From an uncultured Planctomycetota bacterium (GTDB taxonomy: Bacteria > Planctomycetota > PLA2 > JAEUHO01), in contig CAVVXN010000002.1 in the NCBI GenBank assembly GCA_963752285.1, positions 384,001-448,000 on the forward strand: DNA of 64,000 nucleotides, given 5' to 3'. Below are positions 24,912 through 42,306 of the stretch, one piece after another (within the stretch, counting starts at the first letter, position 1; each line of letters starts with the position of its first letter). Position numbers and translations under genes: made by a program. The notes beneath the pieces are model-generated. The model ran no database searches, was not told where the DNA came from, and worked only from the letters and a program-made list of their open reading frames with translations.

Positions 24912-26032
24912 CCGCCGCCCAAGACCCCCTCGTCTCCCTGCTCGTCGAGCGCGCGCTCGTGACGCAGGACCAGATCGCCGAGGCGCGCCGGATCCAGCAG
25001 CAGATGGAGTCCATGGGTCTCCGCGCGCGGTCCGTCCCGGACGTCCTCGTCGAGAAGGGCTGGCTCGACGGGACCGACCTCGAGAGCCTGCAGAAGGACC
25101 TGCACACCGTCGAGGGACGGGACCAGGTCGCGGGCTACAAGCTGCTCGAGCTCGTCGGTCGCGGCTCGATGGGGGCGGTCTACAAGGCCAAGCAGCTCTC
25201 GCTCGACCGCGTCGTCGCGCTGAAGGTGCTCGACCCCGAGCTCGCACGGGACGAGGCGTACGTCGCGCGCTTCCTCAAGGAGGCGCGCGCGGTCGCGCGG
25301 CTCTCGCACACGAACCTCGTGTCCGGTATCGACGTCGGCGAGGAGGGCGGTGTTCGGTACCTCGCGATGGAGTTCGCCGACGGCGTCACGCTCGCGCGCG
25401 TGCTGCGCCGCGGCGGGGCGCTCGACGAGGAGCGCGCGCTCTGGCTCGGGACCCAGATCGGTCGCGCGCTCGAGTACGCGCACAAGAACGGGCTCGTGCA
25501 CGGCGACCTGAGGCCCGAGAACGTGATCATCACCGGCGACGGCGTGGCAAAGGTCTCCGACCTGGGCGTGGCGCGCCGCGAGGCGGACGCGACCGAGGAG
25601 GGCCGCGAGCTCAAGGGCTCGCCCGACTACCTGAGCCCCGAGCAGGCGCGCGGGCTCGAGAACGTCGGGCCGCCCGCCGACCTTTACGCGCTCGGCTGCA
25701 TCCTCTTCCACATGCTCACGGGACGCGTGCCCTTCCCCGCGGAGCAGCGCGAGGCCACCGTCGCGAAGCACCTGACCGAGCCGGCCCCCGCCGTGGAGAG
25801 CCTCGCGCCCGAGACGTCCGCCGAGACCTCGGCGATCGTCGCGCGTCTGCTCCAGAAGAACCCGACCGAGCGCATGCCGAGCGCGACGGCGCTCCTCGAG
25901 GCGCTCGACGACGCGACGACGCGCCTCAAGGCGGCGCGCCTCCGCGCGGCGCCGCCTTCCTCCTCCGCGCGCCCGGGTGCCCCGTCCTCCGCCGGCGGCG
26001 CGCCCGTGGTCCGCCGTCGCCGTCGCCGCTGA
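24908..26032 (+). CDS. Hanks-type Ser/Thr protein kinase with N-terminal helical domain
   Basis: GRGSMGAVY, VALK, HGDLRPEN, DLG, YLSPEQ, DLYALG; ATGA overlap with ybeY. Confidence 0.92.
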   Translation: MTAAQDPLVSLLVERALVTQDQIAEARRIQQQMESMGLRARSVPDVLVEKGWLDGTDLESLQKDLHTVEGRDQVAGYKLLELVGRGSMGAVYKAKQLSLDRVVALKVLDPELARDEAYVARFLKEARAVARLSHTNLVSGIDVGEEGGVRYLAMEFADGVTLARVLRRGGALDEERALWLGTQIGRALEYAHKNGLVHGDLRPENVIITGDGVAKVSDLGVARREADATEEGRELKGSPDYLSPEQARGLENVGPPADLYALGCILFHMLTGRVPFPAEQREATVAKHLTEPAPAVESLAPETSAETSAIVARLLQKNPTERMPSATALLEALDDATTRLKAARLRAAPPSSSARPGAPSSAGGAPVVRRRRRR

Positions 26033-26118
26033 CCGTCCCGCCGGCGCGAACGACGTCGTCGTGCGCGTGCACCGGCCCCGGGACCCCGCGCGGGACGACC
26101 GTCTCGGCGGCGGCCACA

Positions 26119-27558
26119 TCAGAGGATCGGAGCGAGGAGGCCTGCGGCGTTTCGGAGCAGTCGGCCGCCGAGCCCGAAGCGGACCTCCTCGGAGCGGAGC
26201 CGTCGGGCGTGGGCGATCTCGCGATCGATGAGCGTACGCAGTGCGACGGCCGTCGGGGGGTGGGGAAAGGCGGCGTTGAGCTCGAAGTTCAGTCGAAGGC
26301 TCCGTGCGTCCATGTTCGCGCTGCCGAGCGTGCCCCACTCGTCGTCGACGACCAGGATCTTGCCGTGGAGCATGCGAGGATAGACCCACACCTCGAGGCC
26401 GGCGTCCATGAGGCGCGGAAGGATGCTCTCCATCGCGAGGCGCACCGGAACGTGGTCCGTCCGGGCAGGGACCAGGAGCCGCACGGGCAGGCCGCGCAGC
26501 ACCACGGCGCGAATGGCCGCCATCAGCGGTTCCGGCGGAAGGAAGTAGGGCGTCATGATGTCCACGCGCACGCGTGCCGCGGCGATGGCGGCGAAGAAGA
26601 GATCCTCGATCTGGCTCGTCTCTCGGTCGGGGCCGCCCGCGACCACCTGCACGGGGACGTGACCGTGAGGAACGGCCCTTCGGAAGTACCGCTCGTCGGC
26701 GAGAGGCTCCCGGGTGGCGAACTGCCAGTCCTCGAGGAACGCGCGCTGGAGTCCGAGCGCCGCCGGCCCCACGATCCGCACGTGCGCGTCGCGCCACCGG
26801 TTCGTCTCCGCGTACTCGTCGGCGATGTTCATGCCGCCGGTGAACCCGGTGTGGCCGTCCACCACGATGATCTTGCGGTGGTTCCGGAGATTGACGCGCA
26901 GGCCCGGGTGGAGGGGGCCCACGGGAAGGAACGCGGCCACGACCCCGCCGGCTTGCACGAGGGGCTGGAAGAGGGTCACCGGGGTGCGGTAGGAACCCCA
27001 GGCGTCGTAGAGCACACGGACGGCCACGCCGCGGGCTGCGGCGCGCGCGAGCGCGGCCACCACCGTGTGGCCGGTCCGATCCGCTCGGATGATGTAGGTC
27101 TCGACGTGGACATGGTCGTGCGCGCCGTCGATGGCCTCGAGCACCGCGGCGAATGCGACCGGTCCCTCCGCGAGCAGCAGCACCTCGTTGCCCGGATACG
27201 GCGGGAAGGCTCCCATGACCTCGGCGGTTCGCACGAGCTCGGGCGAGAATGCGTGGCCGAGCTGCTGGGCTACCGACTCTCGGAAGGGACGCTCGATGGA
27301 CTCCACGTACGAGGCGTGGCCATGGCGGAGGAGGAGCACCTTTCGTCGCAGGCGACTCCGGCCGAGAACCCAGTAGAAGAAGAGGCCGAGCCCGGGCAGA
27401 CCCAAGACGACCAAGACCCATCCGATCCGGCCCTGGGGTGTCTTCGGGGCCAGGAGGATCACGGGAATCGTCGCCAGGCTCGGCAGGATGCTCAGCATCC
27501 AGAGGTGGACGAACACCGATTCCCAGGCGAGACCCAGGGTGAACATCGAGATCGTCAT
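26119..27558 (-). CDS. cls: Cardiolipin synthase
   Basis: Two N-terminal TMs; two HKD motifs (NHRKIIVVD, HGKILVVD); GSANMDARS. Confidence 0.93.
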   Translation of the reverse strand: MTISMFTLGLAWESVFVHLWMLSILPSLATIPVILLAPKTPQGRIGWVLVVLGLPGLGLFFYWVLGRSRLRRKVLLLRHGHASYVESIERPFRESVAQQLGHAFSPELVRTAEVMGAFPPYPGNEVLLLAEGPVAFAAVLEAIDGAHDHVHVETYIIRADRTGHTVVAALARAAARGVAVRVLYDAWGSYRTPVTLFQPLVQAGGVVAAFLPVGPLHPGLRVNLRNHRKIIVVDGHTGFTGGMNIADEYAETNRWRDAHVRIVGPAALGLQRAFLEDWQFATREPLADERYFRRAVPHGHVPVQVVAGGPDRETSQIEDLFFAAIAAARVRVDIMTPYFLPPEPLMAAIRAVVLRGLPVRLLVPARTDHVPVRLAMESILPRLMDAGLEVWVYPRMLHGKILVVDDEWGTLGSANMDARSLRLNFELNAAFPHPPTAVALRTLIDREIAHARRLRSEEVRFGLGGRLLRNAAGLLAPIL

Positions 27559-27572
27559 GAAGGGGGCTCGGC

Positions 27573-28163
27573 CTACCGGTTCCCCGACGGAGCTCCTGCC
27601 GTCACCGCAAAGCGCAGCGCCTGCTCCACGCTCATGGACACGGGCGTGAGCGAGGATCGACGCGCCAGCACCGAGTATCCGCCGAGACCGTAGCTCATCG
27701 GGACGTAGACGACGGCGACCGGGTCGCCTTCCTCTCCGGGGTCGATCTCGGGCACCTCGTGTCGGGTGACGAGTCCGAGCATCCGGACCGGGGAGGCGGC
27801 GATCTTCACGAGCACCACCTGATCGACCCGCTCGGGGCCCTGCCTGGTGAACAGGGAGAGCAGGTCGCTCACCGAACCGTAGATCGTCTTGACGAGCGGA
27901 ACTCGGTCCATCAGGGTTCGGAAGTACGCCCCGATCTTCCGCGCGACGACGGCGCGCATGATCAGCCCCACGGCCACGAGGAGCGCAAACGCCAGGACGA
28001 GACCCGCGCCAGGTATGTAGAGGCGGTCGGGCACGGCGCGGCGCAAGATCCCCCCCAGGATCGTCTCGGCGCCGGAACCCAGCCACCAGCCGATGTAGAG
28101 CGTGATGGCGACCGGAAGCACCGTGACGAGTCCGCTCAACGCGAGCTTCCCGATGGTCTTCAT
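27573..28163 (-). CDS. DUF502 family membrane protein
   Basis: GLVTVLPVAIT, RVPLVKTIYGS, VYVPMSY..GG, MSVEQALRF; RBS ggag. Confidence 0.88.
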   Translation of the reverse strand: MKTIGKLALSGLVTVLPVAITLYIGWWLGSGAETILGGILRRAVPDRLYIPGAGLVLAFALLVAVGLIMRAVVARKIGAYFRTLMDRVPLVKTIYGSVSDLLSLFTRQGPERVDQVVLVKIAASPVRMLGLVTRHEVPEIDPGEEGDPVAVVYVPMSYGLGGYSVLARRSSLTPVSMSVEQALRFAVTAGAPSGNR

Positions 28164-28398
28164 GCCATCTCCTCCGGGCGTCCTGTCGGCGCACACGACG
28201 TGTACGGCATCCCGCCGCGGAGATCCACAAACGGTGCGGGCTCCACCCCGCCCGGGCGCTCGGGTCCGTTCGGTACCGGTGTGCATCCGGCCGCGGCGGG
28301 ACGAAGGCCCGGCACGGGGCGGCCACCGACGTCGAAGGGCGCCGGGGGGACGCCCGCCGGTCGAGCCGATCGGCGGGCGTCCCTTCGAGCCGGCGTTC

Positions 28399-29646
28399 CT
28401 ACCGCGCCTGCGGACCGGGGACGCGCGACTCCGTAGGGGCGTTCGAGGGCGCGGCCGGTTGAGAGCGCCCGGGGTTGACCGGGTCGGACACCGGGCACGT
28501 GTCCTTCGGCGACTCGGGGTCGGAGCCCTTCTCGACGAACGGCGCGTCCTCGGGCGACGTCGCCGCCGCGGTACGCAGCGTGGCCTCGTCGATCTGGTGC
28601 CACGACGGGTCCGGATCGAAGGACTCGATCTTCGCCGCGACCCGGAGCGAATCGGGCCCCAGGTCCTTCTCGTAGACTCGGCCCTGGTTGCTCACGACGA
28701 ACGACATGATGCCGGTGTTGCGGTGCGTCGCCGGCACGCCGAGCAGCGCGAAACCGGCGATCATGCGGCCATTGATCACGTACGAGTAGGCGCCGCCGAG
28801 CGCGTGCGGGCCCTGGGCCGTGAGGATCCGCCAGTAGTAGCCGCCGAAGGGGGCCTTCGCGTCCAGCGCAGCCTTCTGCGCCGCCTCGAGCGGCGTCAGC
28901 TCCGGCCCCGCCGGGCTCAGCTCCTCGTCCGCCGTCGACTCCCAGCAGAGTCCGTCCTTCTCCCCCGGCGTGGAGACGAGCCGCTGCGCGTACTCCTTGA
29001 CGCCGTCGCCGTTGCGATCCATCGAGGCGTACTGGACCTGGGCGTCGGCGTAGGCGAGGCAGATGCCGATCGCCTCCAGCTCGTACTCGCCGATCCGCCG
29101 GACGAGCAGCTCCTCGCGGCCGGCCGCGGTGTCGGCCATCCACCCGCCGTCCTTGTGGACCAACGGGATCGCGAGCGGGTAGCTCAGCGGTCCGACCACG
29201 CATACGACGCGCCCGTCGGACTGCTTCGCCAAGGTGAGATGGGACTTGGCTGCGGTCGCCAGCTCGGCACGCTCCGTACGCACGGTAGGGTCGCTGCCGT
29301 CTTGCACGAGGTCTTCGTTGCCCGGGCCCATGATGGCCTTGAGCGCCGCGTCGTCGTTCTTGTCGAACGCCTCGAACAGCGCCTTGGCCGCGGCCTCGGG
29401 CGTCTCGAAGGTCTTCCCCAGGGAGGGGCTCGGCGGGACGACGGGGGTACCGACGTCGGTGGGGGCCTCCGGCGGGGCGGCGGGCGTGTCGGGCGCGACG
29501 GGGGCGGCCGGTGTCGGCGGCTCCTCGCCGGCGGGAGCCGTCAGGGACACGACGCCGATCGTCGCGAGGAACGCGAAGGCGAAGTACGTGGCAGCGCGAC
29601 CGAGACGAGGAGCGACGCGCTCGACGGGGGGGACTCGGCAGGACAT
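28399..29646 (-). CDS. DUF2950 family secreted protein
   Basis: FETPEAA, RRIGEYEL, AQVQYA, DGLCW, PFGGYYWRILTAQG, GIMSFVV, YEKDLG. Confidence 0.88.
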   Translation of the reverse strand: MSCRVPPVERVAPRLGRAATYFAFAFLATIGVVSLTAPAGEEPPTPAAPVAPDTPAAPPEAPTDVGTPVVPPSPSLGKTFETPEAAAKALFEAFDKNDDAALKAIMGPGNEDLVQDGSDPTVRTERAELATAAKSHLTLAKQSDGRVVCVVGPLSYPLAIPLVHKDGGWMADTAAGREELLVRRIGEYELEAIGICLAYADAQVQYASMDRNGDGVKEYAQRLVSTPGEKDGLCWESTADEELSPAGPELTPLEAAQKAALDAKAPFGGYYWRILTAQGPHALGGAYSYVINGRMIAGFALLGVPATHRNTGIMSFVVSNQGRVYEKDLGPDSLRVAAKIESFDPDPSWHQIDEATLRTAAATSPEDAPFVEKGSDPESPKDTCPVSDPVNPGRSQPAAPSNAPTESRVPGPQAR

Positions 29647-29694
29647 GGAAAACCTCCGATGGCTCTGGGGGGAACTCTGGCGACGGCGGGGCGA

Positions 29695-31176
29695 TCAGGA
29701 CCCGGACCCGGACGGGTTTCGGCGCCCGCGCGCCGCTTCGATGCGGGCGCGCACGCCGTCGAGCACCGGATGCGACGAGCGGACCTGCGGTCCGAGCACG
29801 CGCCGCGGCGTGGCCTTGGGCGCCGGTGCGGCACGGGGCGTGGCGGGGGCCCGCGCCGCGGGCGCGGCACGGGGCGTGGCGGGGACCCTCGGCGCCGGCG
29901 CGGCATGGGGCGTGGCGGGGACCCTCGGTGCCGGCGCGGCGCGCGGCGCCGGAGCGGTGGTGACCGGAGGCGGCGTGGTGCGGTCCGGGCCCTGGATGCT
30001 CCCGCGGCCGCGGCGGCGCCACGCGTCCACGCTCTGGCCGTCTACGACGTTGGGGGTCGGCGCGAGGATGCGCCGCGGGGGGGCCACGATGGGGCGACGA
30101 GCGGGAGCCGGCGTCGGCGCGGTCCTCCCCGGAGGCGTTACGACGCGCGGGGTCGGGGTGGGCCTCGCCCGCGGCGACCACCGGGTGATCGGAGCCGCCG
30201 GCGCCAGAGGCTGCGTCCGCGCGCGCGCGGTGGGCGCGGCGTTCGATCGCCAGATCGTGTTCGTGTACCTCCTCGGAGGGGGCGGCGTCACGTTCACCAT
30301 CCGCATCCCCGTTCCGCGGGTGCCGACGCGCGGTGCGGCGGGCCTCGCGATCCCGACCGACTCGCGCCACCCGGAGTGGAGCCAGGGCTGGTCGGCGTGC
30401 CGCGGCGCGCTCCAGAGCAGGGGCCGGCGCGTGCCCCAGTCGGCGGCGCTGTTGCGCCAGCGGCCCCACCACCACGTGTCGCCGTAGTCGTAGATCCCGT
30501 AGCCCCACAGGATGCGGTAGCGACCCCAAAGGCCGCGGCTACCGAACGAGAACGAGAGCCACGACCGGTAGAAGACGAGCCCCGGCGCCCAGGAGTCGAG
30601 CGTCCAGGGGTCGTAGACGGGGATGTAGACGTAGTTGGGATTCCGCGCCACGATGACGATCGTGGTCCCCCGCTCGACGGCGACGACCTGGTTCTCGGTC
30701 GACACGAGGGCGCCTCTGGCCAGGGCCCTCGCACGGTAGCGCTGGACCGCGTCGAGGACGTCCGCCTGCGCCGTGGCGACGGCGAACCCCATCTGCTCGA
30801 CCCAGGACGGGTTGTCGCCCATCCACTCGAGCACGTCCGGGAACTGGAGGAGGGCCACGAGGCTCGCGTCCCACGTGGAACCCGCCGGCGCGCCCTGGAC
30901 CACGCCACGATTCGATGCGACGAATCGGGCCGCCGCCACGACGTCGAGCGGAGCCTCGGTGGCGGGGAGCAGGGAATCGAGGACGACGTCGGGGTAGAGC
31001 GCGACGGGGGCGACCAGCTCGTCGAGCTCCGCCGCGGAGAGCAGAGCCGGTGCATACGGGTCGTCGGGCTGTCCCATGGCGCGGGCTCCCCCGACCGTGA
31101 TCGCCGCGAGCGCCACGAGGGTGCCGGCGAGGGAAAGCATGGAACGGCGCCGGGTGGGGAGGACGGTCGGGCGCAT
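29695..31176 (-). CDS. DUF3300 family secreted protein with Pro/Ala/Arg-rich tail
   Basis: ELDELVAPVALYPD, WDASLVAL..FPDVL, DVLDAVQRYR, VYIPVYDP; usual neighbour of DUF2950. Confidence 0.88.
   Translation of the reverse strand: MRPTVLPTRRRSMLSLAGTLVALAAITVGGARAMGQPDDPYAPALLSAAELDELVAPVALYPDVVLDSLLPATEAPLDVVAAARFVASNRGVVQGAPAGSTWDASLVALLQFPDVLEWMGDNPSWVEQMGFAVATAQADVLDAVQRYRARALARGALVSTENQVVAVERGTTIVIVARNPNYVYIPVYDPWTLDSWAPGLVFYRSWLSFSFGSRGLWGRYRILWGYGIYDYGDTWWWGRWRNSAADWGTRRPLLWSAPRHADQPWLHSGWRESVGIARPAAPRVGTRGTGMRMVNVTPPPPRRYTNTIWRSNAAPTARARTQPLAPAAPITRWSPRARPTPTPRVVTPPGRTAPTPAPARRPIVAPPRRILAPTPNVVDGQSVDAWRRRGRGSIQGPDRTTPPPVTTAPAPRAAPAPRVPATPHAAPAPRVPATPRAAPAARAPATPRAAPAPKATPRRVLGPQVRSSHPVLDGVRARIEAARGRRNPSGSGS
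29810..29950 (-). repeat. ~36-bp tandem repeat encoding (APAPRVPATPxA)n in the DUF3300 tail
   Basis: ggggcgtggcgggg(a/g)ccc recurs about 3 times at 36-bp spacing. Confidence 0.8.
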
Positions 31177-31209
31177 GACGGGCTCCACGGACAGGAGGTG
31201 CGGACGTCC

Positions 31210-31238
31210 CTTGGATGCCGTGCCCGACGCCTCGGGCC
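31210..31238 (-). promoter_or_regulatory. Candidate ECF promoter, GGCCC-N14-GGCATCCAAG, upstream of DUF3300
   Basis: cttggatgccg at 31210-31220; the same 11-mer lies before three other genes. Confidence 0.55.
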
Positions 31239-31387
31239 CGACAATCCACGCGCATGGCCCCCGCGGCACCGCGCGACACGAGAACGGGCCGCGAGGCGTC
31301 GTGTGCCTCGCGGCCCGCGGTGGAGCATCGAGTCGGTTCCGGCGCGCGTGCGCGCCCCGGACCGGACCGCGCGGATCCGCGTCCGGG

Positions 31388-32578
31388 CTATCGACTGAGG
31401 CTCGTGTACACGCTCTCGGTGACTACGCGCGAGGTGCCCATCTGGGTCCCCGCGTGAGTCGCGTGCCCGTCCGGGACGACCGTCACCCACTCGCCGGGGA
31501 TCACGCGGCTCTGGGTGAACGTCACGGTCCGCTCGGGCTGGACGATGTACGTCTCGGTCCGGTAGCCCGCGAGGCGACGCTCGGTCCGCGTGCCGTTCTG
31601 GACGACCTCCACGCGGGTGCCGGCGAAGACCTGCCGGGTGTCCGTGCGCGCCAGGTATCGCTCCGGCCGCGTGCCGGACTGGTACCGCTCGGTGCGGTAG
31701 CCGGCGAGGCGCTGCTCGGTTCGCGTGCCGTCCTGGTAGGACTCGCAGCGGGTGCCGCGGGTGTACTGCTGGGTGGTGTAGCCGGCGAGGCGCCGCTCGG
31801 TCCTCGAGCCGCACTGGACCCGCTCCGTGCGATAGCCCGACAGGCGCTGCTCGGTACGGGTTCCGCTCTGGTAGCGTTCGGTCCTCGAGCCGCAGACCTG
31901 CACCGTGGTCTGGCCCGTGCACGGGTCACAGACCGTTTGCGTGACGGGGACTTCCCGCGTGGCGTACTCGGGGATCTCTACGCCCGCGTACTCGGGGACG
32001 CACTGGTTCCGGTACACGGGAACGTCCACGTTCTCGTACTGCGGCACCCGGCACGTAGCCACGACGGGCACCTGCCTCGTCCTGTACACGGGAACCTCCA
32101 CGTTCGCGTACTCCGGCACGCATCGGTTCGCGTACACGGGGATCTCCCGCGTCTCGTAGACGGGGACGTCGCACGCGCGGTACTGCGGCGTGCAGCGGCG
32201 CACGTAGACGGGCACCTCGACCTCGCGGTACTGCGGCACACGGCGGCATGCCGTCTCCGCCGGGATCCTTCGCTCGCACGGGGCGCACTCGACGCGGCAC
32301 GGAATCCACGCGCGACGCGTGCAGGGGACCTGACACGGGACGGTGCACGGCGGGCCGACGAGGGCCGCGTCGGCGGACACAGCCGCGTCGGCGGACGGAG
32401 CCGGGACGCCGTCCGCGGGGGTGTCGAGGGCGAACGGACCCGCGGTCGGGGGCGCGTCCTCGTCGGCGGCGGCGGACAGGGACGCGACGCTGAGCGTCGC
32501 GACGAAGGCGAGAGCGACATACGTGGCGATGCGGGCGAGGCGAGGAACAGCTCGCTCGGCGGGAACTCGGCAGGACAT
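31388..32578 (-). CDS. Secreted Cys/Val/Tyr/Thr-rich mirror-repeat protein (YTV-like composition)
   Basis: RBS ggag plus ATG 32578; signal peptide; 13 VPxYxxxx repeats, CDPCTG, 13 GxRTExxxx repeats. Confidence 0.85.
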   Translation of the reverse strand: MSCRVPAERAVPRLARIATYVALAFVATLSVASLSAAADEDAPPTAGPFALDTPADGVPAPSADAAVSADAALVGPPCTVPCQVPCTRRAWIPCRVECAPCERRIPAETACRRVPQYREVEVPVYVRRCTPQYRACDVPVYETREIPVYANRCVPEYANVEVPVYRTRQVPVVATCRVPQYENVDVPVYRNQCVPEYAGVEIPEYATREVPVTQTVCDPCTGQTTVQVCGSRTERYQSGTRTEQRLSGYRTERVQCGSRTERRLAGYTTQQYTRGTRCESYQDGTRTEQRLAGYRTERYQSGTRPERYLARTDTRQVFAGTRVEVVQNGTRTERRLAGYRTETYIVQPERTVTFTQSRVIPGEWVTVVPDGHATHAGTQMGTSRVVTESVYTSLSR

Positions 32579-32862
32579 GGGAAATCTCCAGTGGATCCGA
32601 AGGGATGTGGGTGGGGGGAATGGGAGAGGACGAGGCGCGTGGGTCGGAGACGGCCGGGCGGCGGCGGCCCGGCTGGCGACGGGCGGGGACATGTGCCGTC
32701 GGGCACCGGCGGTCGTGGGCGGGTCTCGGCCCGCCGCCCCTCGGGGACGGTCCTCGCCGCCGGTTGCCCGCCCCCGCGCAGGCGGAGCCGACGGCACGAG
32801 CCTCGAGAGCCCCGGGGGGCCTGGTCACGACGAGAGGGAGCCGCGGTGCGAAGCGGCCTCGG

Positions 32863-33030
32863 TCAGAGGGACCTCGCCCGGCGTCCGAAGAAGAACGACG
32901 CGACGAGCAGCACGAGGAAGACGAAGAACAGGATCTTCGCGAAGCCGAGGGCGGTGGCGCCCAGCAACCCGAATCCGAAGACTCCGGAGACGAGGGCCAG
33001 GACGAGGAGCAGGAAGATCAAGCCGATCAT
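32863..33030 (-). CDS. DUF1328 (UPF0391/YtjA-like) small membrane protein, 55 aa; absent from the ORF track
   Basis: Read by hand: MIGLIFLLLVLALVSGVFGFGLLGATALGFAKILFFVFLVLLVASFFFGRRARSL; RBS aggaga. Confidence 0.9.
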   Translation of the reverse strand: MIGLIFLLLVLALVSGVFGFGLLGATALGFAKILFFVFLVLLVASFFFGRRARSL

Positions 33031-33520
33031 GTTGCAGTTCTCCTGAGGCGGCGGATCTCGAGATCGCCCGTCTTCAAGACCGGGCCCGGCGGCGAAGCGC
33101 GCGTCTCCATCGCCACACCTTCGAGACGTTCGGCTCCGAAGGAGCCTTGGTTTCGACGTGGCCCGGAACCGATCGTGCGCCCGTCACCCACGCCCGAGTC
33201 CCTCTTGGGGCTGTTGAGCCGCATGCACCAGACCAGAGGCTCGGGCGACGACCCGGATCCCCTCGCAACCGAGCGTGGCAGTCCGTGTCGCCACCTGATC
33301 AGATGCCGGGGGCCGACGATGGGCACGGGGAATCCGGCGCGGCGGGAGTCCCGGCCGGGGCGAGGAGCGTTCGGGCGGCGACGCGGGGGCCGAGACCCAC
33401 CGGTCGGCAGCGGCCGAGTCGGGATCCGAGTTCGTCGTTTCCAAGCCTCGGTGCCGTACCCGGCGCGTATGCTGACGCTTCGAGCCATCACGGGCCGTCG
33501 GGTCGTGATCCATCATGATC

Positions 33521-33563
33521 GTGACGCGTCGAGATGGTGACCCGTCGAGATGGTGACCCGTCG
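33521..33563. repeat. 16-bp tandem repeat gtgac(g/c)cgtcgagatg, about 2.7 copies
   Basis: Directly visible in the sequence. Confidence 0.8.
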
Positions 33564-34047
33564 CGCGTCGAGGGGACACGTCCCCTGCCGTCGCCTGCAA
33601 GGAGGGTTTCATCGTGGCAACCGGTCGAGGTCGCGGGGTCGAGAAGTTCCATTCGTCCCGAGGCGCCGCCAAAGCCCAAGGCAGCGACAAGGACCGCCAC
33701 CGCGCAACCGACCACGGCCGCGCGCAGCAGGCGATGGGCAGCGGTGGACGGTCCGGCGGCACGAAGTCGGCGGGTGGCCGTGTGCGCGGCGGATCGCATG
33801 GTGGCACCCGAGGTCGAGGGCGAACCACCGGCGGATCCCACAAGTAGCCCTGCGGGGCGGCGGGAAGCGGGCCGAGAGCGGCCCCGGGTCGAGAGCCCGG
33901 GCCCACGGAATCGGGCCCACGGAACCGGGCCGGCGGGCCTGTCGGATCCGGGCGCGATGGCTCGCAGCGCACGGGCTCGCGGTCCCGGAAGCCGAGACGC
34001 CCGGCCGGGGCGCGGGAAGCACGTGCGGACGCTCCTCTCGGAGAGGG

Positions 34048-37000
34048 TCAGCTCCGGCGACTGGCCATCGGGGCGCGCTCGCCGAGCACGAGTCCGATTC
34101 GATGGACCCCACCGTCGTCCACGAGGGGGATCTCACACGGATCCACCGGGCTCCCGTCCAGGACGGCCTCGGCGGCGCCCCGGCCCCGGCGCTCCGGGTT
34201 CTCGACCTCGATCTCGTATCGCGTCGCGCCGAATCGAAACGCGATGGAATACCCGGGCCATCCCGCGGGAATGCAGGGGGCCAGCCTGAGCGTCGCGCCG
34301 CGTCGCTGGAGCCCGAGGATGCTCTCGAGGCCGGCCCGGTACATCCAGCCGGCCGAGCCGGTGTACCAGGTCCAGCCGGCCCTTCCGGCGTGAGCGGGAT
34401 CAGCGAGCACGTCCCCGGCGAGGACGTAGGGCTCGGCCTGGTACCGCTCGACGTCACCCGCGGTCCTCGTGTGATTGACGGGATTCAGCATGTGGAAGAG
34501 CTCGACCGCCTCGTCGCCGGAACACAGCTCGGCCAGGGCCATGATCGTCCACACCGCGGCGTGTGTGTACTGGCCGCCGTTCTCTCGGACCCCGGGCGGG
34601 TAACCCTTGATGTAGCCGGGCTGCTGGGGCGAGCGGTCGAAGGGCGGCGCGAGCAGCGGCAAGATCCCGGGCCCGCGCTGGACGAGGTGCGTGCGGACGG
34701 CGTCCATGGCACGCTCGGCGAAGCGGATCGGCACCGCGGCCGAGAGCACGGCCCACGACTGGGCAACCGAGTCGATCCGACACTCGTCGTTCTGGGCGGC
34801 GCCCAGGGGGGCGCCGTCGTCGTAGTAGCCGCGCCGGTACCACTCCCCGTCCCACGACTGTTCCAGCATCTCCCCCAGGTGCCGGGCCTCGCGCCGATAG
34901 TGCTCGGCCCGTGCCCGGTCGCCTCGCGTCTCGCAGAGATCGGCAAAGTCGCACAGGATCGGGTGGAGGAAGAAGCCCAGCCACGTGCTCTCGCCCCGTC
35001 CTTGCCAGCCCACCCGGTTGAACCCGTCGTTCCAGTCTCCGCTGCCGATCCGTGGCAAGCCGTGCGCGCCGGCGGTCAAGCCCCTCTCGATGGCGCGCAG
35101 ACAGTGCTCGAAGAGGGCCGCCTGCTCCTTGGACACGCGGGGTAGGATGTAGGCCTCCTGCGACTCCGGGGCGAGCGGCGGCGCCTCGAGGAAGGGGACG
35201 ACCTCGTCCAGCACCCCCGCGTCGCCCGTCGTCCGCACGTAGTGAGCCACGGCGTGGGGAAGCCACAGCAGGTCGTCCGAGCACCGGGTGCGCGTACCGC
35301 GTCCGCTCGGCTCGTGCCACCAGTGCTGGACGTCGCCTTCCACGAATTGCCGACGTGCGGCACGCAGGAGATGCTCCCGCGCGAGGTCCGGCCGGGCCCA
35401 TCCGAGGGCCATGACGTCCTGAAGCTGATCCCGGAATCCGAACGCCCCTCCGGGCTGGTAGTAGCCCGTCCTCGCCCAGAGTCGGCAGCTCAGGTCCTGG
35501 TAGAGGAGCCAGCCGTTCATCAGCAGATCGAAGGAGTCGTCCGGCGTGCGCACCTGTACCGCGCCGAGCGTGGCGTCCCAGAGCCGACGTACCGCGGCGA
35601 GAGCCGCCTCCGCCGCCGCCGCCGGGCCGTGGCGTTCCACGAGCTGACGGACCCCCGCGGCGCTGCTCGCCTGGCCGAGCAGGAACACGAGGCTCCGCTC
35701 CTCTCCCGCGCCGAGGTCGATCGACACGTGCAGCGCCGCGCACGGGTCCAGGCCGGCCCCGAACCGGCCCGAGAGCGCCTCGCGCGCGAGGGCCGCGGGA
35801 CGCGCCAACGAGCCGTTGCGGCCGAGAAACGACGCTCGGTCGCCCGTGGCCGAGCGGAGGGCCTCGCTGGCGTGTGCGAACGCCACCTGCCCTCTCTGCT
35901 CGGTGTTGTAGGGGTTCTGGGCCAGGATGGTGCCCGTCGCCTCGTCGAGCTCGGTTACCACGTGCATCGAGTAGCCCGGGCGCGGCGGACCCAGGATCCA
36001 CTCGTTGTACGCGAAGACGCTGAGGTGGCGCCGCGAGCCCCCCTCGTTCCTCAGGGTGAGGCGCGAGAACTTGACCGGGTCCTCCGGGTCTACGAAGACG
36101 TCGAGCTGCTGCCGGAGTCCGTGTGACGATCGCGAGAAGCTCGTGCATCCCGCAGCGTGCCGGACGACGACGCGGCCGCTGGCCGACGTGCGCGGCGTCG
36201 GGCCCGGAGTCGCCGCCCACGCCTCGCCCGTGTCGTCGTCACGGACGAACAGGGCCTCGGCCGTGGGGTCGGTCACGGGGTCGTTCGAGAACGGCGTCAG
36301 GCGGTTCTCGGAGCTGTTCGTCGCCCAGGTGAACGCGGCTCCCGACGCGGTGATCACCGTTCCGAAGCGGGGATTGGCGATCACGTTCGCCCACGGAAGC
36401 GGCGTCTCCGCCTCGCCGTCCAACACGATCACGTATTCGCGGCCGTCGCCCGTGAACCCACCCAGGCCGTTGTAGAGGGAGAGCGGAGGGACGTCGATGG
36501 TCGCAGGCGACGACGTCGCGGGAGCTGGCGCGCGCGAGGGCTCGAGATCGGGCGGTTCCGGCGGCGTCCAGTCCGCGCCAACGCGATCGAGCTGTGCCGA
36601 CAGGCTCCCTTGGTCGCCGACCAGCACGGCCCGCGCCAACGCGGCGAGCAGCAGCCGCTCGGCCTCGCCCAAGCGGTCCGCACGCAGCAGGTAGGCACCG
36701 CCGGGTTGTTGGTTCCACGCCCGCCACGGGCCATTGTCGAGCAGCGCCGTGATCTGGTCGTGCATCTCGTCCAGATAGCCGATGGGGTGCTCGTTCAAGA
36801 TGACGACGTCCGCCCGGAGCCCCTTGAGCCGCCAGTACTCCTGGGCCTGCAACACCTCGCGCACCAGCGACAGATCGTCCTCCTCGACGACCCTCACGAG
36901 GAGGATCGGGAGGTCTCCCGATATCGCATGCGGCCACAGCCCCTCCTGTCCGAGCTCGCTCCGGGCCAGGATCTTCGGGCTCGCACGCAACGACTGATCG

Positions 37001-40000
37001 CGGTACAGGACGCGGGACGCCAGGCGCTCGTAGCGGATCTCGTCCTCGGGGGTGATGCCCAAGTGCAGGGACGCGCTGCGCACCTGCGCGGCAGCGAGGG
37101 CGAAGCTCCGCGCGACGGCGCTGGGGTCGCGGTACTTCTCGGCCAGCGCCAGGGCTGTCTCGCGGGAGAAGGCCAGGCCGGTCGTGAACGACATCCGCAC
37201 GAGTTCCCCGGGTGCAAGCCGGATGCGCTGACGCAGGCTCACGATGGGGTCGAGCCCGAGCCCGGTCGTGCCGGAGAGGGAGCGGCCGTCGAGCGCCTGG
37301 GGGTTCTCCAGCGACCTCCCGCGGCCCAGGAAGCGCATGCGGTCGCTCTCCCACTCGACGGGACCCAGCGACCGGCCCTCCACGCTCAGGACGTGTACGG
37401 CCCACAGCGCCTCCTCATCGACCGCGCGCGGCCGGCGCCGGCAGAGGAGCGCCGTCCTCTCCGGCAGGTACTCCGTCTCCACGAAGAGCTTTCCGAAGGC
37501 GGGATGGGCGATGTCGTCCGCCGCCGGGGCGAGGACGATCTCCGCGTAGCTCGTGACCTCGATCTCCCGGGGGCGGTCTCCCCGGTTCGTGACCGCGATC
37601 CGTCGTACCTCCACGTCGTCCTCCGTCGAGACCGCAATCTCGAGGAGCGTGGCGATGTCGTCGTCTCGGCGACGGAACGACACCTTCCCCGGGAGGAACG
37701 TCACGAGGTAGTCCTCGGGCTCTCGGCACACGGGCTGATACGCGGCCGACCACGCGGTCCCGCTTCGCACGTCCCGCAGATAGACGAACTGGCTCCCCGG
37801 GTCCCGGGTGGCGTCCTCCCGGTACCGGGTCACGACGCGGCCCCGACAGAAGCTCGCCCCCCCTCCCGCGTTCGTCACCACGGTGGTGTAGCTGCCGTTG
37901 GACAGGAACTGGGCATGAGGCCACCGCGTGTGCGGCGAGCGGAAACGACGAGGGGCGGGAGCGGTGACCGACCCCCCCGACCGCGTTTCCTCGACGGGTC
38001 GAGGTTGGACGACGGGAGCGTATCGCGGCACGCGCTCCTGTAGCAGCAGCTCCGTGGCCTCGACGCGCGGGTCCGCGTGGAACCGCTTCACCATGGGGTC
38101 GCCCAGGAGCACGTTGGCGAGCGAGACGAGGGTCATCCCCTGGTGGTGCGCCATGTACGTCTTCACGATCGTTCCGCGCGAAGGGCCATCCCCCTCGGCG
38201 GCGCCCGGGTCCTCGTCGGGCGTCACGTGGCTGTAGTCGATGGCCTCGTAGTACCCGTAGGCACCCGTCAGTCCACGCGCGGCCAGGCGCCGCAGGTTGC
38301 GAGCCGCGAGTCGGGGCTCGACCATCGCGGCGAGGGCGGTCGCGTAGGGGGCCACCACCAGCTCGTCTCCGAGGCCCCGCTTCAGGCCCAGGCCGGGAAC
38401 GCCAAACGCCTTGTATTGGTAGACTCGATGGCGGTCCACGAGTCCGTAGGCACACTCCGAGATCCCCCAGGGGGACCCTCGCCCCGCCGCGTACTCGATC
38501 TGCCGGCGAACGGCCATCCGACAGGACTGGTCGAGGAGGGTCTCCGGGTAGCTCCTCATCACCAGGAGCGGCATGAGGTACTCGAAGAGCGTGCCGCTCC
38601 AGGAGAGCAGCGTGGGCGTCCCGTCGATGCTCGTGAGCAACCGCCCCAGGTGAAACCAGTGCGCTTCGGCCACGTCGCCCCGCGCGATGGCGATGAAACT
38701 CGCCAGACGCGCTTCCGATGCGAGGAGGTCGTAGTAGGACGCGTCGAGTCGGCCCGGCCTCTCCGCATCCGCGAGGTGATAGCCAATCGAGAGGATCCGG
38801 CGCTGCGGGTCGTGGAGGAAGCCAAAACCCATACCGTCCGCGAACGCGGCCGCGCGGCGGGCGAGCCGCTCGAGACCGACCTCGCGCAGGCCCTCGGCCA
38901 GCGCCAGGAGCGAGCCGGCCAGGTTCCCGCTGTCGACGGTCGATACGTACCGGGGGTAGAGGGGCGCCAGGCTCGTCGTGTCGTACCAGTTGAGCAGATG
39001 ACCCTCGAAGCGCTCCAGCCCCTCCATGGTCGTGAGGGTCGCTTCGATCCGCTCGGCCAGGGCGTCCGTCGCAATGAAGCCGAGGTCGTGCGCGGCCAAC
39101 GTAGCGAGCAACCCCATGCCGATGTTCGTGGGAGAAGTCCGGTGGGCCACCCGGGGCTCGGGCGTCTCCTGGAAGTTGTCGGCGGGCAGGCTGTGGCTGT
39201 CGGGGCCCATGAACGCCTCGAAGAACCGCCAGGTCTCGCGTGCGACCTGCTCGAAGAGCGTGCGGTCCTCCGGGCTCAGGTCCCGCCGGTGGTCGCGGAC
39301 GGGTCGACTCAACGCGTAGGCGATCAGCGGGGCGACGGCCCACAGGGCGAGCACGGGCGCGGCCGCCGGCAGTGCGGCCGGGCGGACCACCCACACGACG
39401 ACGAGGCCGAAGAGGGCCATCAGCGGACTGGCGATCATCCCTCGTGCGAATGTCCGCACGCGGGGCGGGCCGCCGCCCCGCTCCGCGCTGGCCGCCGCCG
39501 TTTCCCACTCCAGCATCCGGCGATGCGTGACGGAGATCCGGACGAGGGTCAACGCGATCGCGTGCGCCCCCTGCCAGGCCTCGTTGGCCAGGAAGGCGAG
39601 GCGCAGCCCGGTCTGGGCGAGCGCCTCGCTCACGTCGTTCGCCAGGAGGCGAACGAACACGTGCCATGGCTGACGCGGCCTCGGTCCGGCGGCGCCCTGC
39701 AGGATCAGCGGGTAGAGCGGAAACGCCAGGGAGACCAGGAGCGCGGCGGTCCACACCGCCGGACTTCCCGGCAGGGTCGTCCAGGCGAGGAAGAGCAAGA
39801 CGACGGTGGCCGGGGCCAGGAGACTGCGCCTCAGGTTGTCGAGGATCTTCCAGCGCGAAACGAGGGGGAGACGGTTGCGCTGAAGGCCGGACCGTGTCGG
39901 GACGAACGGGAACAGCCACCACAGGATCTGCCAGTCACCGCGCACCCAACGGTGTTGGCGGCGCGTGTGGGCGAGGAAGGTCGAGGGATAGTCGTCTACG

Positions 40001-42306
40001 ACCTCGACGTCCGAGACGAGCGCCGTGCGGGCGTACAACCCCTCGAAGAGGTCATGGGAGAGAACGGCGTTCTCCGGCACCCGCCCATCGAGTGCGGCGA
40101 TGAACGCGTCCACGTCGTACAGTCCCTTGCCGGTGAAGATCCCCTCCGAGAAGAGATCCTGGTAGGTGTCCGAAACCGCGGTCGTGTAGGGATCCACGCC
40201 CGTGTGCCCCGCATAGAGCCGAGAGAACAGCGAGCTCGCGGCGCTCTTCATGGTGACGCTGACCCGTGGCTGCAAAATTCCGTATCCTCGGGTAACGCGA
40301 CCGACGCGGGCGTCGAAGTGGGGCTGGTTCAGGGGATGGGCGGCGATCCCGATGAGAGCCTTCGCCGCGTCGCGTGGGAGTCGCGTGTCGGTGTCGAGCG
40401 TGATGCAGTACCGTACCCGTGGGAAGATCCCGGCGTCTCCGGCCTCCACCGAGAAGCTCGTGTCCTTCGCTCCGCGTAGGAGGCGGTTCCACTCCTCGAT
40501 CTTGCCGCGTTTGCGCTCCCAACCCATCCACACGCCTTCGCCCGCGTTCCACTGGCGCACCCGATGGACGAGGTAGAAACGGTCGGTACGCCCCTCACCA
40601 TAGCGCGTGTTGAGTGCTTCGACGCCCGCCCGTGCCGCGGCGAGTATCGCTGGGTCCTCCGGCATCTCCCGGGCCCGGGCGTCTGCGAAATCGCTCAGGA
40701 TGGCGAAGTGCACGTGCGGATCGAGGTTGCCCAGGGCGAGCACCTCGAGGTGCTCGAGCAGAGGGGCAATGCGCTCGACGCTCGTGAGCAGCGTCGGTAC
40801 GACCACGATGGTCCGCGCGCTCTCCGGGACGCCCCCCTGGAAATCGAGGCGGGGAAGACGCTGCGGCCGGACGAGACGGGCGCACGCGCGTTGGACCGCG
40901 GCGATGGCGAGGTCGCTGGCCGGGAACAGGAGCACGAGCGCCACCCAGGCCTGCGCCCAGGGGGAGACGGTGTGGCGCGCAACGTACGCGCAGCCGAGCC
41001 CGAGCAGGAGCGCGGTGAGGGCCGCGATGGACCCGAAGTACGCCAGCCCCGCGTGGGCGAAGATGAAGCGTCGTATGCGACGGCCGAATCTGGGCCGGTG
41101 TGCGACATCGGCCTCGAGGTTCGCGCGACCTCTCCCGATCAGGTAGTGGCCCACGTGGGTCGCGGTACCCGAGGCTCCCTTCTCGGCAGCCTGCCGTGCG
41201 CTCTCCACCGCCCGGAGGGCTACGCGGAGCTGGGCGTCCCCGCTGGCGTCGGCCAGGATCTCCACGGCCCGGCGGTATCGGTCGCGGCTCAGGAAGTCCA
41301 TTCTTCCGTAGTCACCCGACGGGTCGCGCTGCAGCACCCCTTCGACGAGGCTCACGGACTCGAAGTACCGACTCCAGTCGAGGGTGGCGGAGAGGCGCAG
41401 GCTCGTGACGGCGTTCGCCACGGAGACCTGGGCGGCGGCCTCGCGCTGGTGCTCGCTTCGCACCGCGTCGTCCGAGGCGGTCTGTTCCGCGACGAGATGC
41501 GAATCCACGGCCGTGCGGACCGCGGAGAGACGGGGGCCGTACTCGCGCGCGAGCTGCAGGAGCTGCACCACGAACGCCGGGTGGATCCGGGTCGGCAGCG
41601 GCGGCGACTGGCCGTGGCCGACGGCGTCGATCTGCGCGACGTAGGCCTTGGCGGCCTGGCGCGCCTGGCGCGCCTCGATGGCCTCCTCCGCGAGGCGACG
41701 CAGGTTCTCGATGAGGGCGAGCTCGAGCGTGCTCGGCCACGCCCACAGCTCGCCGATCGTGAGCCGTGCGACGGTCTGGTAACTGTCCATGAAGCGCACC
41801 AGCTGCAGGCGGTCCAGGCGGCTGTCGCTGTGGCGGACGAGCGCGACGGCCATCGCGTAGACCCGGGCCTGGCCTCTGCACTCCTCCGCGGCGAGCTTGG
41901 GCAGCTCGCGGTAGTAGCCTCGGGGGAGATTCTGGCGTATTTCGCGGATCTCGGAGGCGATCAGGTGGTAGTTGTCGAGAAGCCACTCCGCGGCGCCCGT
42001 GACGACCTCGCCGCTGTGGACGTCCTGCGCCATGACGAGATACGCCTTGCGCAGCACGCGGGCGTTCTCGTCGAACCGCGAGAACAGGTCGGGCGCCGAC
42101 CGCGGCGGTGAGGGGTCGAGGGTCAGGCGAGCGGCGAGGGACTTGGCCCTCTCCTCGAGCCGTTCGATGTCGAGCAGCTCGTCCCGAAGCGGCTTCTCCG
42201 GCGTGCCGGCGCGGCGGAGACCGAGGAGCCGCAGCGTCGCACAGAGCATTCGGGCCACGGCCACGCCCGCACCTTTCCCACCCGAGCCCGTGGATGGATC
42301 TACCAA
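34048..42306 (-). CDS. Cyclic beta-1,2-glucan synthase (Cgs/NdvB/ChvB-like) with C-terminal GH94 phosphorylase
   Basis: 2752 aa; [88 protein letters not shown]. Confidence 0.93.

Follow-up and report, generated by a model that had tools for sequence, protein, structure and literature searches.

The window analysed here, a 64,000-nt stretch of DNA (73% GC) from an uncultured Planctomycetota bacterium, carries a gene whose product (protein P0001) contains two arrays of short repeats, 13 units of 8 residues with the pattern xPxY (arm A) and 13 units of 9 residues with the pattern GxRTE (arm B), joined by a short tip. We consider it likely that this protein is exported and that the two arrays pair antiparallel, unit for unit, as one beta-ribbon that acts as a stalk or spacer, with a length determined by the unit number n. 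Specifically, the arrays would zip into a single continuous two-stranded beta-ribbon with about 100-130 residues per strand, roughly 35-40 nm long if fully extended by our estimate of ~0.33 nm per residue. The one extra residue in each arm B unit would give about one bulge per unit, possibly at its Gly. Both chain ends would lie at a Cys-rich base beside a flexible linker, and a conserved loop containing CxxC would form the distal tip, presented at the full 35-40 nm from the base by a rigid extracytoplasmic stalk or spacer. In such a protein the length would shift only when both arms gain or lose equal numbers of units at the same height.

The reading made earlier from the sequence only had described a signal peptide, 13 repeats of 8 residues, a CDPCTG turn and 13 repeats of 9 residues at nt 31541-32239, and fixed-frame cutting reproduced this layout exactly. 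Arm A runs from VPQYREVE to VPVTQTVC with Pro at position 2 of each unit, and this Pro is nearly invariant among the homologues. Arm B runs from GSRTERYQS to GYRTETYIV; 12 of its 13 units begin with G and unit 10 begins with R. The tip, DPCTGQTTVQVC, contains CDPCTG and is among the best-conserved segments of the family; it has three Cys when C217 is counted, and across the family it keeps CxxC together with a third, sometimes a fourth, Cys. From residue 87 onward the protein consists of 14.8% R, 13.2% T, 13.2% V, 9.0% E and 7.1% Y, and an R/T/V/E/Y-rich composition of this sort is typical of exposed beta-structure.

The two arms contain equal numbers of units throughout the family. We built landmark hidden Markov models (HMMs) for the N-side base, the tip and the C-side base, and measured the distances from base to tip (dA) and from tip to base (dB) in the fetched proteins and in the open reading frames (ORFs) of the fetched loci. 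All three landmarks scored at least 10 bits in 51 distinct proteins, 49 of which fit dA = 8n+14 and dB = 9n+20 at the same n within 0.3 unit. These proteins fall into unit-number classes of n = 4, 5, 6, 8, 9, 11, 13 and 18, including 30 at n=8 (26 exact and 4 within 0.3) and 11 at n=11, and the window protein is the sole n=13 member. The lengths of arm B and arm A correlate with a Pearson r of 0.98 and a slope of 1.133, close to the 9/8 (1.125) of the unit lengths. In the two outliers, P0048 and P0025, the N-side landmark is displaced, and counting by eye gives about 8:8 and 6:6 units. In the n=9 and n=6 classes dB lacks one residue, and both the n=9 proteins and P0071 (n=6) come from a subgroup whose tip carries a one-residue deletion. 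Aligned with MAFFT against its n=11 relatives, the window protein has an insert of 16 residues in arm A and one of 18 residues in arm B. Eight states of n imply at least seven length changes, every one matched in both arms, and the earlier expectation that homologues keep their repeat numbers equal is thus borne out. Counts by P or G phase and by chains of position-specific scoring matrix (PSSM) matches were dropped for the planctomycete set (68 of 103 within one unit, r 0.65). The PSSM chain counts were too noisy because the chains ran through the tip and the base, which is why the landmark HMMs were used instead; PSSM counts were kept for the permuted proteins described below only, where they are approximate.

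The growth of both arms has left matching traces in the DNA of the n=18 paralogue from the window's own genome. As found by Tandem Repeats Finder, arm A of this paralogue contains a 72-nt period (three A units) in 3.5 copies with 90% match, and arm B contains an 81-nt period (three B units) in 3.5 copies with 76% match. The two repeat arrays span 5.1-15.6 and 4.2-14.8 units from the tip, respectively; being alike in copies and height, they indicate that three-unit blocks were multiplied equally often and at the same height in both arms. The window gene has a 135-nt (five-unit) period in arm B and a 72-nt period in arm A, and since these periods differ, its history is less clean than that of the n=18 paralogue. 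The arms were presumably duplicated separately, with selection then restoring matched lengths, and the structural model of the window protein, in which two inserts bulge, might illustrate what a tolerated intermediate looks like.

The order of unit types is mirrored about the tip. Counting outward from the tip, the sequence-only reading had set the VP[EQ]Y units opposite the GY junctions. This holds for all four GY units (B3, B5, B8 and B13), which match A3, A5, A8 and A13. It fails for two further P[EQ]Y units, IPEY at A2 and TPQY at A11, so that 4 of the 6 P[EQ]Y units have a GY partner and the mirror is strong, not perfect. By our arithmetic, the chance that four GY units fall within six given places of 13 is 15/715, or ~0.02. 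Of the seven VPV-type units, which the earlier reading had mostly facing xQxG[ST]-like junctions, 4 to 5 do so. The pattern is found again among 11 closer relatives: at the mirror register, polar residues at A position 3 and aromatic residues at B position 2 occur together (36/18 versus 12/64, an odds ratio of 10.7). Moving the register by +1 or -1 gives an anticorrelation, and +3 gives a second peak (odds ratio 9). These cell counts are phylogenetically non-independent, and the comparison between shifts serves as the control.

Covariation between the arms points to the same register. In 34 ungapped n=8 sequences (effective number 28), we averaged mutual information (MI), after average product correction, along candidate diagonals between arm A and arm B. 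On the antiparallel diagonal of slope 9/8 the mean MI is highest at offsets -6, -8 and -4 (0.057, 0.046 and 0.043), reaches 0.034 at offset -5 and is at most 0.018 at every remaining offset; even offsets dominate, as expected of same-face neighbours in a beta-ladder. The peak smoothed over five offsets is 0.040, and none of 100 permutations of arm B among the sequences reached it (mean 0.0085, maximum 0.019), while the parallel mapping of the arms gives only 0.003. The diagonal was already visible with 25 sequences. At the peak, the VPx of an A unit lies across from the junction of two B units, between ..xxA and Gx.., and position p of an A unit faces position ~12-p of the B unit that comes next in the direction of the tip. 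Pooled MI at the level of units singles out one shift (6.08 versus 2.98-4.81 at eight others). The scan thus supports arms that are antiparallel and in register, as first proposed: a single 9/8 antiparallel diagonal was found, centred within ~1 unit of the register derived from the match of VP[EQ]Y with RLAGY.

Structures were predicted with AlphaFold2 (AF2). The model of the window protein, based on a 35-sequence alignment, has a mean predicted local distance difference test (pLDDT) score of 75.3, and its outer strands, E108-171 and E276-347, match in length with 64 and 72 residues, eight units each. A clearer model was obtained for P0024, the n=8 paralogue from the same genome, with a 43-sequence n=8 alignment. 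In this model each arm is one unbroken strand, E96-164 with 69 residues and E173-250 with 78 (ratio 1.13), and a turn of 8 residues connects them; the mean pLDDT is 83.9, with block values of 96-97 over most of both arms and 80-94 around the turn. The strands of its base match in length as well, E83-93 with E253-263 and E76-80 with E266-271. In both models the arms are long paired strands, neither a solenoid nor disorder, as predicted before any model had been made. Neither model had a match at E <= 1e-3 with Foldseek against the PDB or a Z score of 5 or more with VIA-align against 48,161 chains. Most VIA-align rows of the window model covered the signal helix only. The rows that span the arms are all non-significant: the anthrax protective antigen (PA) channel 6psn (VIA-align Z 2.9, root-mean-square deviation 8.6, 68 residues aligned), the lysenin pore (VIA-align Z 2.1, Foldseek E 0.24) and the tail knob gp9 of phage phi29 (Foldseek E 2.4e-3, probability 0.28, TM 0.08).

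The family is well populated in a narrow part of the planctomycetes. A word-indexed search returned 39 proteins at E <= 1e-3, an exhaustive phmmer search over 1.84 billion representatives returned 177 at E <= 1e-3 and 74 at E <= 1e-10, and a profile search brought 13 further relatives; the named ones are "hypothetical protein" entries from Planctomycetota metagenome-assembled genomes (MAGs). Both arrays were detected by PSSM chaining in 103 of 166 fetched proteins of at least 150 residues. Of 301 planctomycete genomes sampled, 12 carry such genes: the window's own, 9 of 10 others from its taxonomic family and 2 of 290 elsewhere. Most have several paralogues, some of them in tandem. Tandem sets of two or three hairpin genes lie at G233:C220:2387-7086, G167:C3:60929-63903, G025:C6:95738-98339 and G201:C3:24997-27244. 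The window's genome has three more paralogues, of 551 residues on contig C4, 302 residues on C1 (P0024) and 183 residues on C5, and thus holds a series of n = 6 (C5, 6:6 by eye), 8 (P0024), 13 (window) and 18 (C4, both arms). Other planctomycete subfamilies, with P0046 and P0063, reach about 19 units per arm. A short-armed subfamily (P0035, P0037-P0039; n about 5) carries an N-terminal Gly-rich segment and a run of PVAYP pentapeptides before the hairpin, and P0039 has a long Arg/Pro/Gly-rich C-terminal tail; a genome scan with P0039 gave no confirmed relative.

In other proteins, which are circularly permuted and in some cases have a domain inserted at the tip, the arrays come in the reverse order, B then A, with a spacer ranging from none to 339 residues. 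Those from uncultured Bacilli MAGs are surface proteins about 480-730 residues long and N-terminally membrane-anchored, with arrays 49-77 residues apart, and some contain Listeria-Bacteroides repeat domains. In P0092, arrays of about 14 and 13 units lie 339 residues apart, and a YSIRK-type signal scores 19.2 bits in Pfam, just under the 20-bit cut-off. In ten such permuted proteins the approximate unit counts of the two arrays correlate (r = 0.88), with 8 of 10 within one unit; P0049 was left out of these counts as uncertain (43 versus 18 units, arrays far apart).

Many database matches carry one array only. Such proteins, among them P0064, P0086, P0073 and the 2072-residue P0055, were rejected as compositional look-alikes that are not members. 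P0064, P0086 and P0073 are eukaryote-like and contain dozens of near-identical units of 8 residues (VEVPRxQT, GVPxYIVT) or 9 residues (QAGTRHDMV). The giants P0049 (4166 residues) and P0055 carry long runs of 8-residue xPxYGNxx units; P0049 additionally has a 9-residue GNxxxNVxV run more than 2300 residues upstream, a Laminin_G_3 domain and a C-terminal Peptidase_S74 chaperone domain, as in tail-spike and fibre proteins.

Several observations weigh against a free-standing ribbon formed within one chain. AF2 breaks the hairpin of the window protein at residues 188-205 and 256-275 with low confidence, these segments being the protein's own two-unit inserts, without alignment cover, and the units nearest the tip pair two units out of mirror order. 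Pairing of the arms in the AF2 models was read from DSSP strand lengths only, on the ground that strands so long have no other possible partner. The covariation alignment is small, and its 34 members are related to one another. A free-standing two-stranded ribbon this long has no solved precedent in the Foldseek search of the PDB or in the VIA-align comparison, and the nearest structural rows, non-significant as they are, come from hairpins that exist only inside oligomeric barrels. No recurrent gene neighbour giving a functional clue was found in the scan of 63 of 96 GC3-filtered ORFs (GC3, GC content at third codon positions) from 11 of 12 fetched loci, no ORF of locus L045 having passed the filter. 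Finally, at the derived register no Cys of one arm lies opposite a Cys of the other, and the mature chain contains 17 Cys, an uneven count. Together these facts hint at intermolecular links; intermolecular disulfides or lateral assembly are a real alternative. A ladder of disulfides across the arms was considered and rejected. The only Cys-Cys co-occurrences that are enriched join B position 9 to A position 3 (shifts -1 and +2) or to A position 8 (shift -2). All are displaced from the covariation register by one to two units and seem to echo the repeat pattern instead of marking contacts.

The cysteines and the barrel-stem rows, the only structural rows to cover the arms, would also fit a hairpin that is only a protomer, with side-by-side copies forming a beta-barrel or tube, a sheet or a fibril. 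Such an assembly could serve as a sheath, wall layer or channel stem, and surface Cys might cross-link it. Cys-rich wall proteins are reported from planctomycete envelopes (PMC8567305), which suits this arrangement. We nevertheless regard it as unlikely, because the arms carry much charge (R 14.8%, E 9.0% and T 13.2% from residue 87 onward) and lack the hydrophobic/polar alternation typical of membrane barrels, and because AF2 is confident for P0024 as a monomer. Equal unit numbers and covariation between the arms would arise just as well from pairing of arm A with the arm B of a second chain, which would produce a domain-swapped antiparallel dimer or a polymer with open ends, a filament rather than a hairpin; the arms of permuted relatives, up to 339 residues apart, are compatible with such pairing. 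It seems quite improbable, since a short and strongly conserved turn joins the arms, AF2 closes the turn of P0024 into a hairpin with pLDDT 80-94, and the N-side and C-side base segments of P0024 also pair in length. We give very little credence to the view that the protein belongs with the disordered, low-complexity wall proteins of YTV type, rich in Cys, Pro and Thr, and that the hairpin is an AlphaFold artefact on repetitive sequence. The composition is similar, and the second match in the ESM Atlas (0.82, 131 of 256 shared features), a lead below the 0.9 level, belongs to a cluster that is 96% PF07639 YTV. Yet the window protein gives no YTV match at E <= 1, and disorder would not enforce eight matched length classes, mirrored duplications or a register-specific diagonal. 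Taken together, we favour the ribbon formed within one chain, and all the tests that were run support the structure proposed from the sequence. The repeats, the equal unit numbers, the antiparallel register and the mirrored block duplication come directly from computation, whereas export, location, monomeric state, rod-like rigidity, the role as a stalk or spacer and any part played by the Cys residues are inferred.

The ORF at 31388-32578 is a real gene, with a GC3 of 0.909, a signal-peptide-like leader and a GGAG upstream of its start; its features are collected in the table.

Table. Features of the hairpin gene and protein in window coordinates (E, strand; H, helix, as predicted by AF2)
Feature	Residues	Window position	Strand	Remarks
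Whole gene		31388..32578	minus	ATG at 32578, TAG stop at 31388-31390; 396 codons + stop; GC3 0.909; homologues exist
GGAG, Shine-Dalgarno-like		32586..32589	minus	-11 to -8 from ATG; kept in the similar 5' end of the DUF2950 gene
Signal peptide (putative)	1-38	32465..32578	minus	hydrophobic helix, SAAA, then DED; AF2 helix 13-34; cleavage site placed by eye
Acidic Pro/Ala-rich linker	39-86	32321..32464	minus	predicted disordered, pLDDT 40-46 over 37-86
N-side hairpin base	87-113	32240..32320	minus	E88-92, E95-105; base-N landmark HMM 17 bits
Arm A, 13 x 8-aa xPxYxxxx	114-217	31928..32239	minus	fixed-frame cut; E108-171, E173-187, E206-217
Tip, DPCTGQTTVQVC	218-229	31892..31927	minus	turn landmark HMM 25.7 bits; fixed-frame cut
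Arm B, 13 x 9-aa GxRTExxxx	230-346	31541..31891	minus	fixed-frame cut; E224-236, E240-255, E276-347
C-side base and tail	347-396	31391..31540	minus	E350-360, E363-368, E384-387, H388-395; base-C landmark HMM 42.6 bits

All homologues have a similar hydrophobic N-terminal leader, which in the relatives P0042 and P0189 looks lipobox-like by eye, whereas the length of the linker differs between them. The N-side base contains four Cys (94-111) and a conserved IPx...R.V..PA motif, and further base Cys lie at the end of the linker (78, 82 and 86). The C-side base and tail show the pattern xPxRT...V.PxxWVTVVPDG...GT..V.TE..Y with a short helix at the end, and the C-side base of the window protein is free of Cys. 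In total there are 18 Cys: one at residue 3 in the signal peptide, seven in the N-side base (78-111), five in arm A, three in the tip (217, 220 and 229) and two in arm B.

The hairpin gene is flanked by a gene for a 2752-residue GH94/GT2 protein and by a DUF3300-DUF2950-PLD run. Directly upstream, at 34048-42306 on the minus strand, the ORF of 2752 residues contains GT2, GH94 supersandwich and GH94 catalytic domains, arranged as in cyclic beta-1,2-glucan synthases. On the other side, at 28399-31269 on the minus strand, lies a DUF3300 (524 residues) and DUF2950 (415 residues) pair, followed by a PLD-type cardiolipin-synthase-like gene at 26119-28326. This run does not recur beside hairpin genes elsewhere in the loci scanned. 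The sole recurrence among the neighbours is a frame of short-chain dehydrogenase and prolyl-tRNA synthetase genes around a tandem pair in two genomes of one genus. The Bacilli locus examined was uninformative on function, and Rfam gave nothing over window positions 26000-36000. A similarity links window positions 29468-29828 and 32400-32760 (minus strand). Over its first 56 residues, which comprise the signal peptide and the beginning of the linker, the hairpin protein shares 61% identity with the N-terminal end of the DUF2950 protein encoded two genes downstream; at the DNA level the match begins some 20 nt before each ATG and takes in the GGAG. This stretch looks like a shared or duplicated 5' leader cassette.

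The searches placed the window protein in no characterised family, as had been anticipated. A Pfam scan at E <= 1 returned a chance N1_PEX6 row only, with no YTV PF07639 row, and no YTV match was found in ten relatives scanned with Pfam at E <= 0.01. NCBIfam gave nothing above threshold for the window protein, the family profile searched with hmmsearch against PDB sequences gave a single chance row (E 0.12), and the ESM Atlas held no match at 0.9 or above; Foldseek and VIA-align, as described, gave no significant match to a solved structure. The resemblance to YTV proteins noted from the sequence therefore stands for composition and not for membership, PF07639 being absent at E <= 1. Candidate families with a superficial likeness were also rejected. 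The collagen-like Scl adhesins NF038329 and NF038330 have cut-offs of 325 and 400 bits, where the window protein scores 13.6 and 14.1, and Gly recurs at every ninth residue, not every third. Cornifin/SPRR (PF02389) is absent from the window protein and reaches 20.4 bits in P0060 and 18.3 bits in P0049 against a gathering threshold of 34.8; it shares with the hairpin family only an 8-residue Pro-containing period. For the antigen I/II (AgI/II) adhesins, the window protein shows no Pfam family, no Ala-rich heptads and no LPXTG. What the window protein does have is an 8-residue xPx[YFW] array and a 9-residue Gx[RK]xE array in one chain with equal unit numbers (13 and 13), and for the n=8 class antiparallel 9/8 covariation between them; these features define the family of paired 8/9-repeat hairpins that we propose.

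Known fibrous types include coiled coils, collagen, beta-solenoids and triple beta-spirals. To these, the present reading, if true, would add a long coreless two-stranded ribbon stabilised by two different short repeats, and it would provide a clean natural case in which the repeat numbers of two widely separated parts of a gene co-evolve, a process seen at work in the mirrored block duplications of 72 nt and 81 nt. A wider claim we advance only tentatively, rating its chances a little short of even: that this is a new fibrous fold, a free-standing ribbon tens of nm long in which co-expanding 8/9 arrays act as a genetically encoded ruler, with the same A:B zipper reused in permuted form in Bacilli to hold whole domains off the cell. 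The 6-, 8-, 13- and 18-unit versions of the window's own genome would then measure about 16 to 48 nm, and such rulers might fix spacings within the planctomycete envelope or hold out a reactive CxxC tip. The ribbon would also be a designable rod with length steps of about 2.7 nm per unit, and it would offer a handle on the poorly understood architecture of planctomycete envelopes and on unannotated surface proteins of gut Bacilli. Natural variants from 4 to 18 units make these claims directly testable with recombinant protein.

Comparison with known systems places the hairpin family apart from each of them. YTV wall proteins are likewise secreted by planctomycetes, contain short repeats and are rich in Cys, Pro, Thr, Tyr and Val, but the 8/9 two-array architecture lies outside their description; YTV genes are reported in PMC8567305 to be restricted to Planctomycetales. 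The stems of pore toxins and phage tail knobs (anthrax PA, lysenin and phi29 gp9) also form one long two-stranded antiparallel hairpin per chain, but these hairpins are far shorter, contain no repeat arrays and hold together only within oligomeric barrels. The OspA central sheet, SasG/Aap and the "periscope" proteins are elongated, coreless beta-structures rich in Thr, Val and charged residues, with a length set by repeat number; their stalks stack small three-stranded or domain-sized repeats along one chain direction. Unlike these, the hairpin has two unlike arrays that must change together, and its ribbon would be two-stranded throughout.

The closest parallel is the stalk of the AgI/II adhesins (SpaP/SspB), whose A and P regions pair along the stalk and lift the V domain from the surface, as described in PMC7732690. 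As the hairpin is predicted to do, AgI/II folds two distant, unlike arrays back into an elongated stalk, with both chain ends at the cell-proximal base and a domain at the distal tip. The permuted relatives, with a B array, an inserted domain and an A array, follow the same stalk logic using predicted beta-strands. In AgI/II an alanine-rich alpha-helix winds with a polyproline-II helix, whereas in the hairpin family both partners are predicted beta-strands with units of 8 and 9 residues; AgI/II repeats span tens of residues. The two share neither sequence nor Pfam similarity, and the tip of the planctomycete hairpin is merely a 12-residue loop. No description of a matched 8/9 two-array hairpin was found in the literature searched. 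We therefore rate this hairpin as a new kind of fibrous architecture, for which YTV proteins appear to be a compositional look-alike only and the AgI/II stalk appears to be the nearest analogue in principle.

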